In this document: piece after piece, positions 2,195 through 7,163 of the stretch
Layout of the letters: the number at the start of each line of letters is the position of its first letter
How positions within the stretch are numbered: the first letter of the stretch is position 1
Virus record (IMG/VR): IMGVR_UViG_3300045988_132558
Span: 1 to 23,043 of that record
Direction: 5' to 3' (one strand)
Length of the DNA: 23,043 bases
Source: a virus
Lineage: Duplodnaviria; Heunggongvirae; Uroviricota; Caudoviricetes
The notes under the pieces: generated by a model
The model's database searches: none
What the model saw: only the letters and a program-made list of their open reading frames with translations
What the model was told of the DNA's origin: nothing
Position numbers and translations under genes: made by a program

Positions 2195-2444
2195 ACGCCT
2201 GGCTGCTGAGGCAGGTGTGTTTAAACAAATCCCCGCGAGATGCAGTGGGTCAGTTCTTTTTCCCTTTTCGTCGAGCGCTTCTTTTACCCACTCTTCAAGT
2301 TTCATTTTGCGAGCTCTGGCGCTGTTGTTCCATACTGCTTTTTGAGAGCCGTTACAGGAACGCCTTTTTCTCTCCAGTCATTATCTTTCCCTGGAGTACT
2401 GATAAAGACGACTCCATCAACAAACATTTTATGATGTGATGTAC

Positions 2445-2469
2445 AAAAAGAAAAATCCCGCTATGCGGG
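2445..2469 (-). terminator. Rho-independent terminator oriented for - strand transcription
   Basis: On the - strand: stem CCCGC-ATA-GCGGG followed immediately by ATTTTTCTTTTT. On the + strand the T-run is displaced, so orientation is minus. Confidence 0.45.
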
Positions 2470-2699
2470 GTTAACCTGATTTTTTTTTCGCTTCTTACTT
2501 CTTATCCCACATTCCATGCATTCTTTCTATCTCAGCATCAGTTAAATCATCCAGCCCAACAATTTCAGAGCCGTGACGATAAACGAAAACGCACACACTC
2601 TCCAACGTTAGTCAAAAATAGTCACGCGCCGCGCAGCACCCGCGCTCACTCGATTATTTATAATACCTATGGATTATTTATATATCATATGGGGATATT

Positions 2700-3332
2700 A
2701 TGAATGGTTTTTACGACGACTGGCCTGAAACGTTCGTCACCCGACTGGACATGTTGCGAGTGCTGGATAACAGAGGGGCAACCCGGAGACTCTACACAAA
2801 ACGTACAGGGGCGATTTACAACGCGCTGGCAGACGAGGTTCGTGAGGCTGTGACTGGATTCAATACCAGTGAACTCGACTTAGGACCACTCTACCGGTAT
2901 TACAAATGTGGAGGAGAGGGCGACGCGCTGGCAGACACACTGATCGCACTGGCGCCGACTGTGTGCAGGCGCGTAATGATTTCCCCTGACGTATACACAA
3001 TACCGTACCTGTTTTTTGCGCTGTTGATAGCGCGAGGAGAGGACGACGATGCACGTGATTTTTTCAATATGATGATGCGGCCACTAATCGTGGCGTACCG
3101 GTTCAAACAACTGGCGCGTTACCTGGGAACAAAGGGCGGAGGGAGGCCACAGCACAGGCTAAAAGACGAGGCATTACAGATTGCAGAGGTTTTTTTCACA
3201 AATAACCCCCACGCACGGGTTAGTGCGGCGGTGGCACGTATTAACGAAATTCTCGTAAAAAAATATGCTGACGTTCCGGCGGAATCAACTATTAGAAAAT
3301 GGTTAACCCCTGTTTATGGAAATGAAAAATAA
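2700..3332 (+). CDS. Hypothetical protein, 210 aa
   Basis: ORF track 2700..3332 (+). GGGGA Shine-Dalgarno-like sequence upstream, and a TATAAT hexamer at 2667-2672. No family recognised. Confidence 0.5.
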   Translation: MNGFYDDWPETFVTRLDMLRVLDNRGATRRLYTKRTGAIYNALADEVREAVTGFNTSELDLGPLYRYYKCGGEGDALADTLIALAPTVCRRVMISPDVYTIPYLFFALLIARGEDDDARDFFNMMMRPLIVAYRFKQLARYLGTKGGGRPQHRLKDEALQIAEVFFTNNPHARVSAAVARINEILVKKYADVPAESTIRKWLTPVYGNEK

Positions 3333-3374
3333 TAACCATAAACCGTTTTTTCCGGGAATAAACCGTTTAATCAA

Positions 3375-3389
3375 ATTCACGAGGTGAAT
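3375..3389. promoter_or_regulatory. Inverted repeat ATTCAC-GAG-GTGAAT (candidate operator)
   Basis: Exact 6-bp arms with a 3-bp spacer, about 90 bp upstream of the small ORF at 3482, next to a TTGACG hexamer at 3418-3423. Confidence 0.25.
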
Positions 3390-3481
3390 GTAATTGTTCA
3401 TTATCCCCCCATTGTATTTGACGTTATGACAAATGGTCACGAATACTGTATAAATATACAGGATTTCTGTCAGGGGGAAAT

Positions 3482-3661
3482 ATGAACACACACAAGGCAA
3501 TCAGCAAATTACCGGATACGTGCCGGGCTGTAATCAAACGAGAAGAAGGGCGCGTAGTGAGTGTGCGCGTTCTCAGCAACGACGAGCGGATTGCCAGCCT
3601 GATGGCGTTTCTCGAGTTGGCAGAAATAGCTGGATATACTATTACACCCCCTGAAGCGTAA
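3482..3661 (+). CDS. Small hypothetical protein, 59 aa (below the ORF-track cutoff)
   Basis: Found by manual translation: ATG at 3482 preceded by GGGGGA about 5 nt upstream, open for 59 codons to TAA at 3659-3661 (MNTHKAISKLPDTCRAVIKREEGRVVSVRVLSNDERIASLMAFLELAEIAGYTITPPEA). Confidence 0.35.
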   Translation: MNTHKAISKLPDTCRAVIKREEGRVVSVRVLSNDERIASLMAFLELAEIAGYTITPPEA

Positions 3662-3737
3662 AACACGGTATAATACTGGTGCTGGATTGAACACCCGGCA
3701 CCACTTCTGAACACTGCCGCGCCACCTGGAGTTAACC

Positions 3738-4334
3738 ATGGCGCAGCATTCATTTATCAGGGTATCCGGCGGTTCGCTAATACCCGCGACACCAGACACG
3801 CAACGCTGGTTGACTGAACGAGTCAAACCAGGTGCTGTTGTGTATGCAGATTTCAAACAGGCGCGTAATCCCGCGTTTCATCGTAAATTTTTCTCACTTC
3901 TCAACCTGGGCTTTGATTACTGGCATCCCTCCGGAGGGGCTATTTCTCCTGCGGAGCGCGAACTGGTTCACGGATACGTTAAGTTACTGGCGTATTACGG
4001 TGGGCATGGTGATGTCATGGCTGAGCTGGCTGATCAGTATCTTCTCGATGAGTCGGAAAAGCGCGCGGGGAATATCAGTGCGGTGAAGTCGTTCGAGGCG
4101 TTTCGCGCCTGGGCGACTATGGAAGCTGGATTTTATGACGTTCATCAGATGCCAGATGGTAGTTTGATGCGTGTACCTCGTTCAATTTCGTTTGCAGCGA
4201 TGGACGATCTTGAGTTCGGTCAACTGTATTCAGCCGTTTTAGATGTGCTGTGGAATTATATTTTGTTCCGCACGTTTGCCTCTCAGGAGGCCGCTGAAAA
4301 TGCTGCCGCGCAGCTGCTGGATTACACATCATGA
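3738..4334 (+). CDS. Phage nin-region protein, DUF1367-like (about 200 aa)
   Basis: ORF track 3738..4334 (+). Size and position directly upstream of a YbcO-like gene match a pairing I recall from enterobacterial lambdoid prophages. Stop overlaps the next start (ATGA at 4331-4334). Family name from memory only. Confidence 0.45.
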   Translation: MAQHSFIRVSGGSLIPATPDTQRWLTERVKPGAVVYADFKQARNPAFHRKFFSLLNLGFDYWHPSGGAISPAERELVHGYVKLLAYYGGHGDVMAELADQYLLDESEKRAGNISAVKSFEAFRAWATMEAGFYDVHQMPDGSLMRVPRSISFAAMDDLEFGQLYSAVLDVLWNYILFRTFASQEAAENAAAQLLDYTS

Positions 4335-4624
4335 AGAAAATCGACCTGAGAAAAGCTGCACGCGGTCGCGCTTGTACTGTGCGTATCCCCGGTGTGTGCA
4401 ATCACAATCCTGAAACCAGCGTTCTGGCTCATTATCGTCTCGCCGGAACGTGCGGCACAGCCATCAAACCTCACGATATGCAGGGCGCTATCGCCTGCAG
4501 TGCGTGTCACGATGCTATCGACGGACGTACAAAAACGGATTACGAGTACGACTCATTGTTGTTGATGCACGCTGAGGGTGTTCTCAGGACGCTGGCCATC
4601 TGGCGCGATGAGGGGGTTATCTGA
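4331..4624 (+). CDS. DUF1364-family protein, YbcO-like (nin-region putative nuclease), 97 aa
   Basis: LRKAARGRACTVRIPGVCNHNPETSVLAHYRL...IACSACHDAIDGRT closely resembles my recollection of E. coli DLP12 YbcO, including the conserved Cys cluster. Overlaps both flanking genes by ATGA. Confidence 0.6.
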   Translation: MKKIDLRKAARGRACTVRIPGVCNHNPETSVLAHYRLAGTCGTAIKPHDMQGAIACSACHDAIDGRTKTDYEYDSLLLMHAEGVLRTLAIWRDEGVI

Positions 4625-5295
4625 TGAGCAACGAATATTTGCTGGAGTTCACCCGAATTAAGTTGCGGAGCGTGCTACTGGATTTATCCGGGGGAACGAA
4701 AGGGCAACTGGAAGCGCTGAGCGAGCACCCACCGGCAGACAAAAACTTTTACCAGCGCAAAAACATTCACCGCGTGGAGCTGGAAGATCGTATGGTTGAC
4801 GCGTTGGTAACACCCGTTTACGCGCTGGAGACGTTCGGTAGGCGTCGCCCGGCACCGCCGATTAATGATTTTGAATTTGCTGATTCACCGTGGCGCCGCG
4901 CCGTGAACTCGCTCGACGTTAGCCAGCAGGCGTGGTTGCGCTATTGCTACGGTGGTGACCTTGCGTTCAAGCACCAAACAGCCATTTGTGAGGCTGTCTG
5001 GAATCGCTATAAAGCAAACATCCCCGCGTCAACTCAGAGAAAAGTAGTCAAGCGCCTGCTTTCGCTGGTGTGGTTGTCCGTGCAGGCGGTCGCAGCAGCA
5101 AATAAACGCGAGGACTTTAAGGAGATGGCTGGATCTGCGCTAGCTGGAATGTTGTCTGTTTCTCGTTCCACCTGGTGCGAAACATACTCCCCGCACTGGG
5201 AAGGAATGAAAGAGGCGGTGAGAGCACTTGATGAAGTGGCACTTTTTGCAACTTTGCATCATTATCAGAACCATTTAGACGACGTTTGCGTATAA
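4624..5295 (+). CDS. Putative late-gene antiterminator (Q-like) by position, 223 aa
   Basis: Last gene before the lysis cassette and directly upstream of a promoter-like element and intrinsic terminator (5291-5390), as for lambdoid Q-PR'-tR'. No confident sequence match, and no Cys4 zinc finger of the lambda Q type. Confidence 0.4.
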   Translation: MSNEYLLEFTRIKLRSVLLDLSGGTKGQLEALSEHPPADKNFYQRKNIHRVELEDRMVDALVTPVYALETFGRRRPAPPINDFEFADSPWRRAVNSLDVSQQAWLRYCYGGDLAFKHQTAICEAVWNRYKANIPASTQRKVVKRLLSLVWLSVQAVAAANKREDFKEMAGSALAGMLSVSRSTWCETYSPHWEGMKEAVRALDEVALFATLHHYQNHLDDVCV

Positions 5296-5345
5296 TGCTT
5301 GCAAAACCGAACAAAATAGGCCATATTTAACGCTAATTTGGTATG
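5291..5345 (+). promoter_or_regulatory. Candidate late promoter region (PR'/qut analogue)
   Basis: Perfect TATAAT hexamer at 5291-5296 overlapping the stop codon of the upstream gene; TTGCAA at 5299-5304. A convincing -35/-10 pair could not be settled by eye. Confidence 0.3.
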
Positions 5346-5363
5346 TTGCCAAATTTCTAAGAA

Positions 5364-5390
5364 CCTCGCCACGGCGGGGTTTTGTCGTTT
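5364..5390 (+). terminator. Rho-independent terminator (tR'-like) between the putative Q gene and the lysis genes
   Basis: Stem CCTCGC/GCGGGG (one G-U pair) with a 4-nt loop, followed by TTTTGTCGTTT. Confidence 0.5.
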
Positions 5391-5407
5391 CTGAATCAGG
5401 AAAAATC

Positions 5408-5791
5408 ATGTCTGAACCTCTAACCGCTGGCGTTGCTGCTGGCTCGGCGGGGGTGACGTTTGCTGCGTTATTTCCTGAGGCAACACCTGCAGTGATGATC
5501 TGTGCGCTGGCAGGCGCAGCTCTCTATGTGTTGTCGTCCGGGCAGCATCGATTCTGGAAGCAGGTTATTTTCGCACTCATTTCGTTTGTTGGCGGTGTGT
5601 ATTGCGCTGAGACAGCATCAGCCATCATTACCGGTATTCTGAACGCGGTGCTGAGTCACCTGAACCCTCCCGTAACAGTAAAAGTCTCTCCCGCCATTGG
5701 TGCACTGGTTGCATCAGTAATCAGCGTTACATCACTGTTGCGAATCATGTCACAAGCTCGTTTATGGAAATCAGATAAGGGGATGAAATAA
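5408..5791 (+). CDS. Putative holin (multi-pass membrane protein), 127 aa
   Basis: ORF track 5408..5791 (+). Several hydrophobic segments and a charged C-terminus (KSDKGMK). First gene after the late terminator, upstream of the endolysin. Confidence 0.45.
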   Translation: MSEPLTAGVAAGSAGVTFAALFPEATPAVMICALAGAALYVLSSGQHRFWKQVIFALISFVGGVYCAETASAIITGILNAVLSHLNPPVTVKVSPAIGALVASVISVTSLLRIMSQARLWKSDKGMK

Positions 5792-6075
5792 TGACCCTGC
5801 ACTCTGTTCTCATCAATGCCAATGCAATTATCTGTCTGATGCTGGCATTGCGGTTAATGTTTTTTCAAAAAACAGGCCGCTATCGTTTTTTCATCTCACT
5901 AACTGCTTACCTGGCGATTCTGTCTGCTGCGTGGATAGCCCTACGAATTTTTTACGGGAAATATACGCAGGTTGATCCCGCAGAGTTCTTTCTCAACCTC
6001 ACCATCTGTATTGCTGTCTGGCGGGCACGAGGAAATATTTCAAAAATAACAGGAGACAGGTATGACCGATCCTAA
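5791..6075 (+). CDS. Small membrane protein (second holin or antiholin candidate), 94 aa
   Basis: ORF track 5791..6075 (+). Two or three hydrophobic helices; start overlaps the previous stop (ATGA at 5788-5791); within the lysis cassette. Confidence 0.35.
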   Translation: MTLHSVLINANAIICLMLALRLMFFQKTGRYRFFISLTAYLAILSAAWIALRIFYGKYTQVDPAEFFLNLTICIAVWRARGNISKITGDRYDRS

Positions 6076-6541
6076 ATGGCTAATTGAGGCACGAAAAAAT
6101 CTCGGCATTCGGGAAATGAAAGGGAAGCAACATGCTGCAGAAATTGTGCAGTACTGGAAAGATATCAAACGCGGCGGCATTAAGGATGATGAAACCCCGT
6201 GGTGCGCTGCCTTCACCGGAGCAATGCTGGAACGTGTAGGTATTCGCTCAACGCGTTTTGAGTCTGCGAATTCTTATCTCGATTGGGGTAATGAACTGAA
6301 GGAACCCGCCTATGGATGCATTGCTATTCTGTCTCGGTCTGGCGGCGGTCACGTTGGCTTTGTTGTCGGGAAAAATGCCGCCAGGGATTTAATGATTTTG
6401 GGTGGCAACCAAGCAGACGCAGTGAATATCAAAGCGTTTCCGAGCTCACGCGTTACCGGCTATCGCTGGCCAGCAGGTCAAACGGATGTTCCACAATCAC
6501 TTCCATTGGTGAATGCTGAGAAATCTATCTCAGAAGCGTAG
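6062..6541 (+). CDS. Endolysin candidate, Cys/His peptidase type (CHAP/NlpC-P60-like; TIGR02594-like), 159 aa
   Basis: ORF track 6062..6541 (+). AGGAGA Shine-Dalgarno upstream. Candidate catalytic Cys (PWCAAF) and His (GGGHVGFVVG) in the spacing typical of cysteine peptidase endolysins. Family from motif and position. Confidence 0.5.
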   Translation: MTDPKWLIEARKNLGIREMKGKQHAAEIVQYWKDIKRGGIKDDETPWCAAFTGAMLERVGIRSTRFESANSYLDWGNELKEPAYGCIAILSRSGGGHVGFVVGKNAARDLMILGGNQADAVNIKAFPSSRVTGYRWPAGQTDVPQSLPLVNAEKSISEA

Positions 6542-6548
6542 GTAAAAC

Positions 6549-6740
6549 GTGAAAAAACTTCTCTTAGCTGTCGCGTTCTTCACTATGGCAGGCTGTACAC
6601 ATTCGACATACACCGAAGCGACTCGCGCTGACGGCAGCAGCATTAAACACGTGATGATCGCGCCGGGTACGAAAATTACCACTGCGGACGGTGGTTGTAT
6701 TGATTCAACTGGTGTCGTAACGGCTTGCCAGTCAAAGTGA
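6549..6740 (+). CDS. Small lysis-associated lipoprotein (o-spanin/Rz1-like candidate), 63 aa, GTG start
   Basis: ORF track 6549..6740 (+). Signal peptide with lipobox (LLLAVAFFTMAGC) and a second Cys pair in the mature part. No separate i-spanin (Rz-like) ORF seen. Confidence 0.45.
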   Translation: MKKLLLAVAFFTMAGCTHSTYTEATRADGSSIKHVMIAPGTKITTADGGCIDSTGVVTACQSK

Positions 6741-6841
6741 TTGTAACTTGCTGTTTTCGATATTAAGTACCTTGAATTAGGTTTACGAGTTGGCATTATA
6801 GAAAAACTATATGGTTCACTAATGTGACATAAGGAAATATT

Positions 6842-7090
6842 ATGCCTAAGTTAAAACTTGTTAAGACATTGCTATTGCCAGGTAATAATAAGTATGAGAT
6901 TTATGCAAGAAATGAATATAGCAACGTAGAACAAATTATTCACTATAAACTGCGCTCTTGTAAGAACGAGCAAGGCCAGGATGGAATGTCTGAGGCGCAA
7001 TGGGTTATTTATAATCCATTGTTTCCATTACCAGATGACCGCAATTATGCAAGTGTATCAAATATAGACGACTATCTGGTCGATTGCTAA
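6842..7090 (+). CDS. Hypothetical protein, 82 aa (moron)
   Basis: ORF track 6842..7090 (+). AAGGAA Shine-Dalgarno upstream, AT-rich promoter-like region 6770-6800, strong terminator just downstream (7101-7121). Confidence 0.45.
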   Translation: MPKLKLVKTLLLPGNNKYEIYARNEYSNVEQIIHYKLRSCKNEQGQDGMSEAQWVIYNPLFPLPDDRNYASVSNIDDYLVDC

Positions 7091-7100
7091 GTGAAATCAA

Positions 7101-7121
7101 ACCGCCTATGGGCGGTTTTTA
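7101..7121. terminator. Bidirectional Rho-independent terminator
   Basis: Stem ACCGCC-TATG-GGCGGT flanked by AAA upstream and TTTTT downstream, between the convergent genes 6842..7090 (+) and 7164..7634 (-). Confidence 0.6.
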
Positions 7122-7163
7122 TTGCCATCACCATGGGAAGACATATAGTAATGGCATTTATCA

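Follow-up and report, generated by a model that had tools for sequence, protein, structure and literature searches.

A lipoprotein in the spanin slot of an Escherichia coli prophage lysis cassette may act as a stand-alone outer-membrane lysis factor

We analysed a stretch of 23,043 nucleotides (nt) from a tailed-phage record (IMG/VR IMGVR_UViG_3300045988_132558), in the following called the window, with a focus on the lysis cassette at positions 5408 to 6740 and on the lipoprotein precursor of 63 amino acids (aa) encoded by its last gene. The window is a prophage that encodes DUF1367 and YbcO proteins as well as a Q antiterminator (Pfam and PHROG matches). Downstream of the cassette follow lambda-type terminase, portal and capsid genes as well as genes for baseplate protein V and a tail sheath. 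The element is thus a temperate phage of E. coli that combines a lambda-type head with a contractile tail of P2 type. At 95-99% identity, the region matches one phage record, ON470624, and a chromosomal prophage that is present in 462 of 5,426 complete E. coli genomes (~8.5%). The cassette and the region immediately upstream of it consist of the following features:

4624..5295, plus strand: Q-type late antiterminator (Phage_antiter_Q, 1.1e-33; phrog_304, 8.9e-72)
5360..5383, plus strand: terminator-like GC-rich hairpin with a T run, located between Q and the first lysis gene (consensus scan, 10-bp stem)
5408..5791, plus strand: holin-like membrane protein 1, 127 aa (PF16931 Phage_holin_8, phrog_198)
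5791..6075, plus strand: holin-like membrane protein 2, 94 aa (PF05449 Phage_holin_3_7, phrog_217)
6062..6541, plus strand: endolysin, TIGR02594 / NlpC-P60-CHAP papain-like cysteine peptidase, 159 aa (TIGR02594, 2e-39)
6549..6740, plus strand: 63-aa lipoprotein precursor in the spanin slot (lipobox, conservation, ratio of nonsynonymous to synonymous substitution rates, dN/dS)

The four open reading frames (ORFs) are located between Q and the terminase gene, and their positions and lengths confirm what an earlier sequence-only reading of this DNA had proposed. Their packing suits coupled translation: the first two overlap in TAATG, the second and third overlap by 14 nt, and 7 nt separate the third from the fourth. 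Judged by its position, the hairpin is likely a tR'-type terminator that is read through by Q. The lipoprotein gene begins 7 nt past the endolysin stop on the same strand. It uses a GTG start, and an AGG Shine-Dalgarno-like sequence lies 6 nt upstream within the gap. A consensus scan of the endolysin-lipoprotein junction returned neither a promoter-like nor a terminator-like site. A read-through fusion of the two genes was considered as well and ruled out, as they lie in different frames. The GC content of the lipoprotein gene (~0.50) matches that of the lysis genes, compared with 0.36-0.45 in the apparent moron block of 1.6 kb further downstream. In RefSeq the four genes are labelled putative holin, phage holin family protein, TIGR02594 family protein and hypothetical protein.

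The lipoprotein precursor consists of a signal peptide (6549-6593), the codon of the lipidated Cys16 (6594-6596) and a mature part of 47 residues after this cysteine. In the signal, an MKK n-region and a hydrophobic core precede the lipobox M-A-G-C16, which reads L-A-G-C in relatives. The LPAM_1 model matches 14 of 27 family members, the window copy not being among them. Position +2 is occupied by Thr, hence sorting to the outer membrane is predicted. The mature part is near-neutral (3 acidic, 3 basic residues, 2 His) and rich in Thr, Gly and Ala. Beyond the lipid-attachment site the protein has no match in Pfam, NCBIfam or PADLOC and none to a PHROG of known function. Homology to Rz1, Bor, Cor, Lysis_col, entericidin and defence proteins was tried and rejected, no matches being found in these four collections. 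The sole PHROG match labelled 'Rz-like spanin' (E 0.03) covers residues 1-45, and signal peptide makes up roughly one third of this stretch.

Homologues of the lipoprotein form 68 clusters in E. coli, Salmonella, Citrobacter, E. fergusonii and E. albertii, and separate searches added copies from Enterobacter, E. whittamii and Superficieibacter. Signal peptides are variable in this family and the mature consensus is nearly fixed (C-THTTYTEATRADGSTVKHVAIAPGTKITTAxGGCIDSTGAVTTCP). Cys50 and Cys60, which lie 10 residues apart at the C-terminus, are nearly invariant. The median pairwise dN/dS of the mature codons is 0.117 with saturated dS, indicating strong purifying selection. In the same genome pairs the mature lipoprotein is 71-83% identical compared with 62-72% for the endolysin, a comparison that leaves out the near-identical pair L028/L030 (92% vs 88%) and the frameshifted copy in locus L031. 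A decaying remnant or a chance ORF is ruled out by the dN/dS value together with the 68 homologous clusters. A profile search with the mature part against 1.84 billion representatives retrieved 12 representative clusters only, none of them informative beyond the family, and no paper on the family surfaced in full-text literature searches. Taken together, the lipoprotein represents a real, constrained and very small family.

Some variation is found towards the 3' end of the gene. For most E. coli relatives the alignment ends within the last 10 codons, at ~6709-6713, and a recombination junction at this site leads to alternative C-termini after Cys50 (..VVTACQSK, ..AEASCLGGK, ..AVASCPVGK). A few alleles are truncated and lack Cys60. 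In L031 (4001-4168) the lipoprotein is a pseudogene with a frameshift after ~20 mature residues, with the adjoining holin and endolysin genes intact. In L030 a second, unrelated lipoprotein of 82 aa (MKKTLLAALFLSLTAC...; 4199-4447) without Pfam match is encoded directly 3' of the family member.

An outer-membrane spanin (o-spanin) needs an inner-membrane partner (i-spanin), and the sequence-only reading had described the lipoprotein as lacking an obvious one. A hydropathy scan for N-terminal transmembrane domains (TMDs) covered all ORFs of the window with 60 aa or more. Such domains occur in the two holin-like ORFs (and internal starts thereof), at an internal alternative start in the ORF 2700-3332 and in antisense ORFs on the minus strand. 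No larger ORF overlaps 6549-6740 on the plus strand. Around 5408-7100 no ORF with an N-terminal TMD exists in any frame besides the holins, and no type II membrane ORF is found in the 23-kb window. The scan thus bears out the earlier description. The further suggestion that a partner might be embedded in another frame did not hold: none is found in or near the gene, nor in 42 homologous loci carrying the lipoprotein. These loci comprise the window, 41.5 kb of the SE11 prophage and others with ~4 kb on each side, and the detector applied to them requires adjacency of the two genes. A 282-aa protein with TMD and coiled coil, encoded upstream of the holin in Citrobacter, was rejected as a general partner since it is present in 5 of 36 loci only. 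No spanin is annotated in the 41.5 kb of the SE11 prophage, where annotation alone argues against a distant lone partner. The early region of the same prophage contains a gene for a 'lysozyme inhibitor LprI family protein' (L036, 8741-9664, minus strand).

For comparison, 80 viral contigs with endolysin homologues (52-99% identity) were collected and the downstream DNA was scanned for type II membrane and lipobox ORFs. Counts refer to the 72 contigs with enough downstream sequence. The automatic test detected an i-spanin/lipoprotein pair in 30 of them, and inspection added ~10 more. The i-spanin in these related cassettes usually starts at -3 relative to the endolysin stop, with a proline-rich lipoprotein embedded or overlapping. 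The lipoprotein described here is found at +8 in 5 contigs. A further 14 have no third component downstream of the endolysin. Eleven of the 14 make up a single block (L050-L060) in which the endolysin stands alone; by analogy with L040 we take this block as a P1-like plasmid-prophage setting. With the same detector, none of the 42 loci carrying the lipoprotein has an i-spanin/lipoprotein pair. The lipoprotein and spanin pairs are mutually exclusive, i.e. their distribution is complementary.

Spanins are found in about 87% of the phages of Gram-negative hosts, leaving ~13% without a recognisable spanin (PMC6139136). The same survey by Kongari et al. lists 31 genomes with a lipoprotein gene but no linked i-spanin, for which distant or atypical partners were allowed for, and classifies BPP-1 as spanin-less (PMC6139136). 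We considered BPP-1 as a parallel case. Its post-endolysin gene bbp1 encodes a membrane protein and not a lipoprotein, hence the case is uninformative.

The lipoprotein gene is found in several genomic contexts. It lies directly 3' of a TIGR02594 endolysin in the window and in L008, L026, L028, L030 and L042, and directly 3' of a Peptidase_M15_4 endolysin in Citrobacter (L004-7) as well as in L029 and L033. In Salmonella (L009-12) it directly follows a Peptidase_M15_3 endolysin within a BPP-1-like podophage module, between holin and capsid gene. L025 and L027 encode a GH24 lysozyme (PF00959, 3.9e-49), then one inserted KilA-N or ANT gene and then the lipoprotein. In L124-126 a siphophage tail module is followed by a Phage_holin_3_1 holin gene whose end is overlapped by distant members of the family; according to a manual comparison of the printed sequences these are 38-47% identical over the mature part. 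In L028, L030 and L124 the start codon and the stop codon upstream of it overlap. The holins that accompany the family are of at least four types, namely the Phage_holin_8 and Phage_holin_3_7 pair, the c7 family, Phage_holin_3_3 and Phage_holin_3_1. The lipoprotein is hence portable, with four unrelated endolysin types or a holin upstream of it in different phage lineages. A specificity for peptidase-type endolysins was ruled out as a GH24 lysozyme also accompanies the family. Between holin and GH24 lysozyme, L025 (88-249) and L027 (2462-2623) additionally contain a 53-aa ORF with two hydrophobic helices.

Two further settings are chromosomal. In two Superficieibacter genomes (L034 and L035, 4001-4201 in each) an intact copy is located between cybB, encoding cytochrome b561, and frmR-frmA. 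In S. electus a further copy follows an M15_4 endolysin in a prophage (L033). The Citrobacter freundii complex carries a fixed defective prophage at the same frmRA site in many assemblies (L004-L007, about 2300-7600). L004-L007 also encode a YecR-like lipoprotein.

The remaining genes of the cassette are ordinary. The two small membrane proteins recognised in the sequence-only reading both belong to holin families, as judged by family matches, multiple TMDs and their location upstream of the endolysin, and are predicted to form holes. The 127-aa protein matches PF16931 Phage_holin_8 above the cutoff (2.1e-11) and the holin family phrog_198 (2.7e-34). Its hydrophobic segments at 16-46, 53-71 and 89-115 (hydropathy) amount to three stretches and possibly four TMDs. 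The 94-aa protein matches PF05449 Phage_holin_3_7 above the cutoff (1.1e-18) and the holin family phrog_217 (4.6e-31). Hydropathy indicates two TMDs (1-26 and 32-55), and a third at ~66-77, read by eye, fits the Pfam family with its three TMDs. We regard this protein as a putative three-TMD holin or antiholin partner.

The 159-aa protein is matched by TIGR02594 with 134.9 bits (cutoff 70.55; 2e-39) and weakly by CHAP with 24.0 bits, just below the cutoff of 26. Cys48, His97 and Asn116 are invariant among 31 homologues. The AlphaFold2 model (predicted local distance difference test score, pLDDT, 83.8; predicted template modelling score 0.84) retrieves with Foldseek the NlpC/P60 D,L-endopeptidases MepS, LytE and T. 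thermophilus 4xcm as well as the type VI secretion system amidase Tse1 as top matches (E 7e-5 to 2e-2). A sequence search for solved structures detected none. The protein has a papain-like fold in this confident model and a conserved Cys-His-polar set, and it is a predicted peptidoglycan hydrolase, in agreement with the earlier assignment as Cys/His peptidase-type endolysin. The endolysin type is less unusual than that assignment implied: TIGR02594 is widespread (more than 1,700 clusters in our search), and its members have been annotated as putative endolysin (Pseudomonas phage ZC01) and as type VI effector domain. The label is correct but not new. No study of the biochemistry of this family surfaced in full-text literature searches. 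Hydropathy revealed no TMD and neither a signal nor a signal-anchor-release segment, therefore the endolysin should depend on a hole-forming holin. In related loci a gene for an AcrIF11-like ADP-ribosyltransferase is found near these genes: in Klebsiella (L037, 2131-2592, minus strand) it lies on the opposite strand between holin and TIGR02594 endolysin, and in Enterobacter (L042, 1940-2401, minus strand) just upstream of the holin.

Behind the cassette, a block of low GC content (6740-8350; 0.36-0.45) with small ORFs on both strands separates the lipoprotein gene from the terminase. It contains ORFs at 6842-7090 (plus strand; phrog_16949, unknown function), 7164-7634 (minus strand; no family match), 7674-7853 (plus strand) and 7920-8483 (minus strand), and a promoter-like site at 6815-6843. 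The content of the block differs among relatives, and it looks like a moron or accessory island.

Based on its position and the complementary distribution, the lipoprotein would be a stand-alone outer-membrane lysis factor that replaces the spanin; we assign this reading a probability of about 0.5. That the lipoprotein may work alone had already been offered by the sequence-only reading, and because of position and complementary distribution with spanins it is now the best-supported one, albeit short of proof. Two of its traits are spanin-like, the outer-membrane sorting signal and the two near-invariant C-terminal cysteines.

Lysis would then proceed as follows. Q-dependent transcription would read through the hairpin at 5360-5383 into the four coupled genes. 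The two holin-family proteins would permeabilise the inner membrane, presumably at a set time, and the holes would release the cytoplasmic NlpC/P60-CHAP cysteine peptidase, which probably cuts the peptide stems of the peptidoglycan. The fourth product would be exported and lipidated at Cys16, and with Thr at +2 it would be transferred by the Lol pathway to the outer membrane, into its inner leaflet. After removal of the wall it would weaken or breach this membrane. As no inner-membrane partner takes part, fusion of inner and outer membrane would not be the mechanism. Possible modes are a disulfide-linked self-assembly via Cys50/Cys60 or the engagement of a conserved host envelope protein.

A more tentative extension, to which we give somewhat less than an even chance, is that phages possess, besides spanins and disruptins, a third class of outer-membrane disruptors, with the 63-aa protein as its founding member. 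This class would be lipid-anchored, ~47 residues long, disulfide-containing, free of an inner-membrane anchor and swappable among unrelated cassettes. Its members would act from the periplasmic face, by self-assembly or by hijacking a conserved host envelope protein.

The comparison with known systems shows likenesses and differences. Like the o-spanins lambda Rz1 and T4 PseT.2, the protein is a small lipoprotein of the outer membrane, its gene directly follows that of the endolysin in a late lysis cassette, and it has conserved periplasmic cysteines near its C-terminus. Such cysteines are found in spanins generally, and in the T4 o-spanin two of them, 11 apart, are required (PMC6139136). The T4 o-spanin family is also similar in not being proline-rich and in having two cysteines about 10 residues apart. 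In lambda Rz1, by contrast, 10 of 40 residues are proline compared with one in the mature part of the window copy. Unlike o-spanins, the lipoprotein has no i-spanin gene embedded, overlapping or adjacent in the 42 loci scanned and no Pfam or PHROG spanin-family match beyond the signal peptide. Moreover, it is far more conserved than spanins usually are.

The unimolecular spanin T1 gp11 is likewise encoded by one gene that occupies the spanin slot and has a lipoprotein signal at its N-terminus, and its periplasmic part is predicted to be beta-rich, as is that of our lipoprotein in a low-confidence model. T1 gp11 is however about twice as long and carries a C-terminal TMD. The lipoprotein has no hydrophobic segment after Cys16 and ends with ...TGVVTACQSK; without a C-terminal TMD it cannot anchor in both membranes. 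The disruptin of phage phiKT (gp28) is comparable as a single small protein proposed to replace the spanin in a spanin-less phage. It is a cationic amphipathic helical peptide without lipoprotein signal, whereas our protein is near-neutral, Thr/Gly/Ala-rich, strand-prone and lipid-anchored. Colicin lysis proteins and entericidin B, which are very small lipoproteins with a high content of Thr, Gly, Ser and Ala, permeabilise the envelope or bring about quasi-lysis without further factors. The resemblance to the Thr/Gly/Ala-rich lipoprotein is a functional analogy only: the Lysis_col and Entericidin models match none of 27 family members at E up to 10, and unlike colicin lysis proteins the lipoprotein is found in a phage lysis cassette and not in a colicin operon.

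Several observations weigh against a stand-alone lysis factor. The mature peptide has only 47 residues after the lipidated Cys, lacks a TMD and is neither cationic nor amphipathic, and no known mechanism of outer-membrane disruption fits it. Its AlphaFold2 model is strand-rich but of low confidence (pLDDT 59.6), which is too uncertain for a fold search. The orphan copies of Superficieibacter have no phage gene within 4 kb. Their ORF aligns without indels while the flanks do not, with a dN of 0.08 and saturated synonymous sites. This apparent constraint points to a use outside lysis. The synonymous divergence of the orphans exceeds that of the flanking genes, therefore some of the constraint may date from their phage past. 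The defective prophage of Citrobacter is devoid of structural genes but has kept the holin, the Peptidase_M15_4 endolysin and the lipoprotein, in which Cys50 is replaced by Gly; it may represent a lysis module that has been domesticated. Both lipoprotein and spanin are missing from a Klebsiella relative that shares the holin and the endolysin; the third component may be dispensable there, or that prophage may be defective. Finally, the lipoprotein gene occurs in a single one of 50,697 phage records, and to judge from the title of a preprint alone this record appears to be a prophage sequence from a clinical isolate.

Part of these observations fits better to a moron, i.e. a lipoprotein of benefit to the lysogen that rides at the end of the late operon and serves superinfection exclusion, receptor masking or serum and envelope protection. 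This is the main rival reading; we consider it unlikely on balance, but it has a real chance. The protein would then function like Bor, Cor or T5 Llp without being homologous to them, and the prophages would be left without an outer-membrane disruptor. The constrained-looking orphans between cybB and frmR, the retention of the gene in the fixed Citrobacter prophage, the near restriction of the family to prophages as opposed to isolated phages and the Klebsiella relative all fit, as do the other morons immediately downstream in the window. The high conservation would agree with binding to a conserved host protein.

The sequence-only reading had named a Bor-like surface protein as an option. In this narrow form it is supported neither by homology, with no match to Lambda_Bor, Cor or any other family, nor by gene layout (same strand, coupled, no promoter-like site); the broader idea of a host benefit is kept alive by the chromosomal orphans. 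Lambda Bor, phi80/N15 Cor and T5 Llp are small phage-encoded outer-membrane lipoproteins as well. The bor gene adjoins the lambda lysis genes but is encoded on the opposite strand and driven by a promoter of its own, and in lambda it occurs together with Rz/Rz1. An unrelated moron would therefore not predict the exclusion of spanins. Cor and Llp are linked to tail or receptor-binding genes. In contrast, the lipoprotein is coupled to the endolysin, excludes spanins and is linked to lysis genes in every phage context, travelling with them over myo-, podo- and sipho-type modules and not with receptor-binding genes. The coupling to endolysin or holin, with start-stop overlaps in some lineages and no promoter-like site, predicts late and not lysogenic expression. 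Moreover, a moron leaves unexplained why spanins are absent from all six independent contexts given their frequency of ~87% (PMC6139136). If the gene were an unrelated passenger, it would be very improbable to find six independent cassette contexts that are all devoid of spanins.

A true o-spanin whose inner-membrane partner has gone unrecognised appears improbable. The partner could be a holin-like protein, a distant prophage gene or a host protein, with which the lipoprotein would assemble into a complex that reaches across the periplasm. The outer-membrane signal, the spanin slot and the conserved C-terminal cysteines would be as expected, and the window encodes two holin-family proteins where one normally suffices. 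The genomes with a lipoprotein but no linked i-spanin listed by Kongari et al. provide a precedent (31 genomes; PMC6139136). However, no accompanying protein is conserved, and holin types vary among the contexts. The window lacks any type II membrane ORF, and the SE11 stretch and the other loci lack an adjacent pair. In addition, a peptide of 47 residues is short for bridging the periplasm, and its proline content of 2-4% contrasts with 12-14% in neighbouring o-spanins. Least of all do we expect a periplasmic regulator that senses or modulates the timing of lysis or protects against lysis from without. With four unrelated kinds of endolysin and no fewer than four of holin, specific binding to either is ruled out, and a regulator would leave the absence of spanins unexplained. 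In its favour, any role in lysis would be compatible with the close linkage of the gene to those for holin and endolysin, and the protein lacks the features of a membrane-active peptide.

As of January 2026 the disruptin peptide is the only recognised alternative to a spanin (PMC6139136; PMC12819732). For the way in which the remaining spanin-less phages open the outer membrane, the family provides a concrete candidate in E. coli and Salmonella. This candidate is small, portable and spanin-exclusive, is present in ~8.5% of complete E. coli genomes and has been annotated only as hypothetical protein. As judged from the sequence, the lipoprotein in the spanin slot may represent a new means by which phages break the outer membrane. 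If it turned out to be an exclusion or fitness factor instead, the question would become how these prophages lyse without an outer-membrane disruptor. If the lipoprotein works alone, the outer membrane would be breached with need for neither membrane fusion nor a cationic peptide, and this may point to a conserved weak spot of the envelope that could be exploited by endolysin-based antibacterials.

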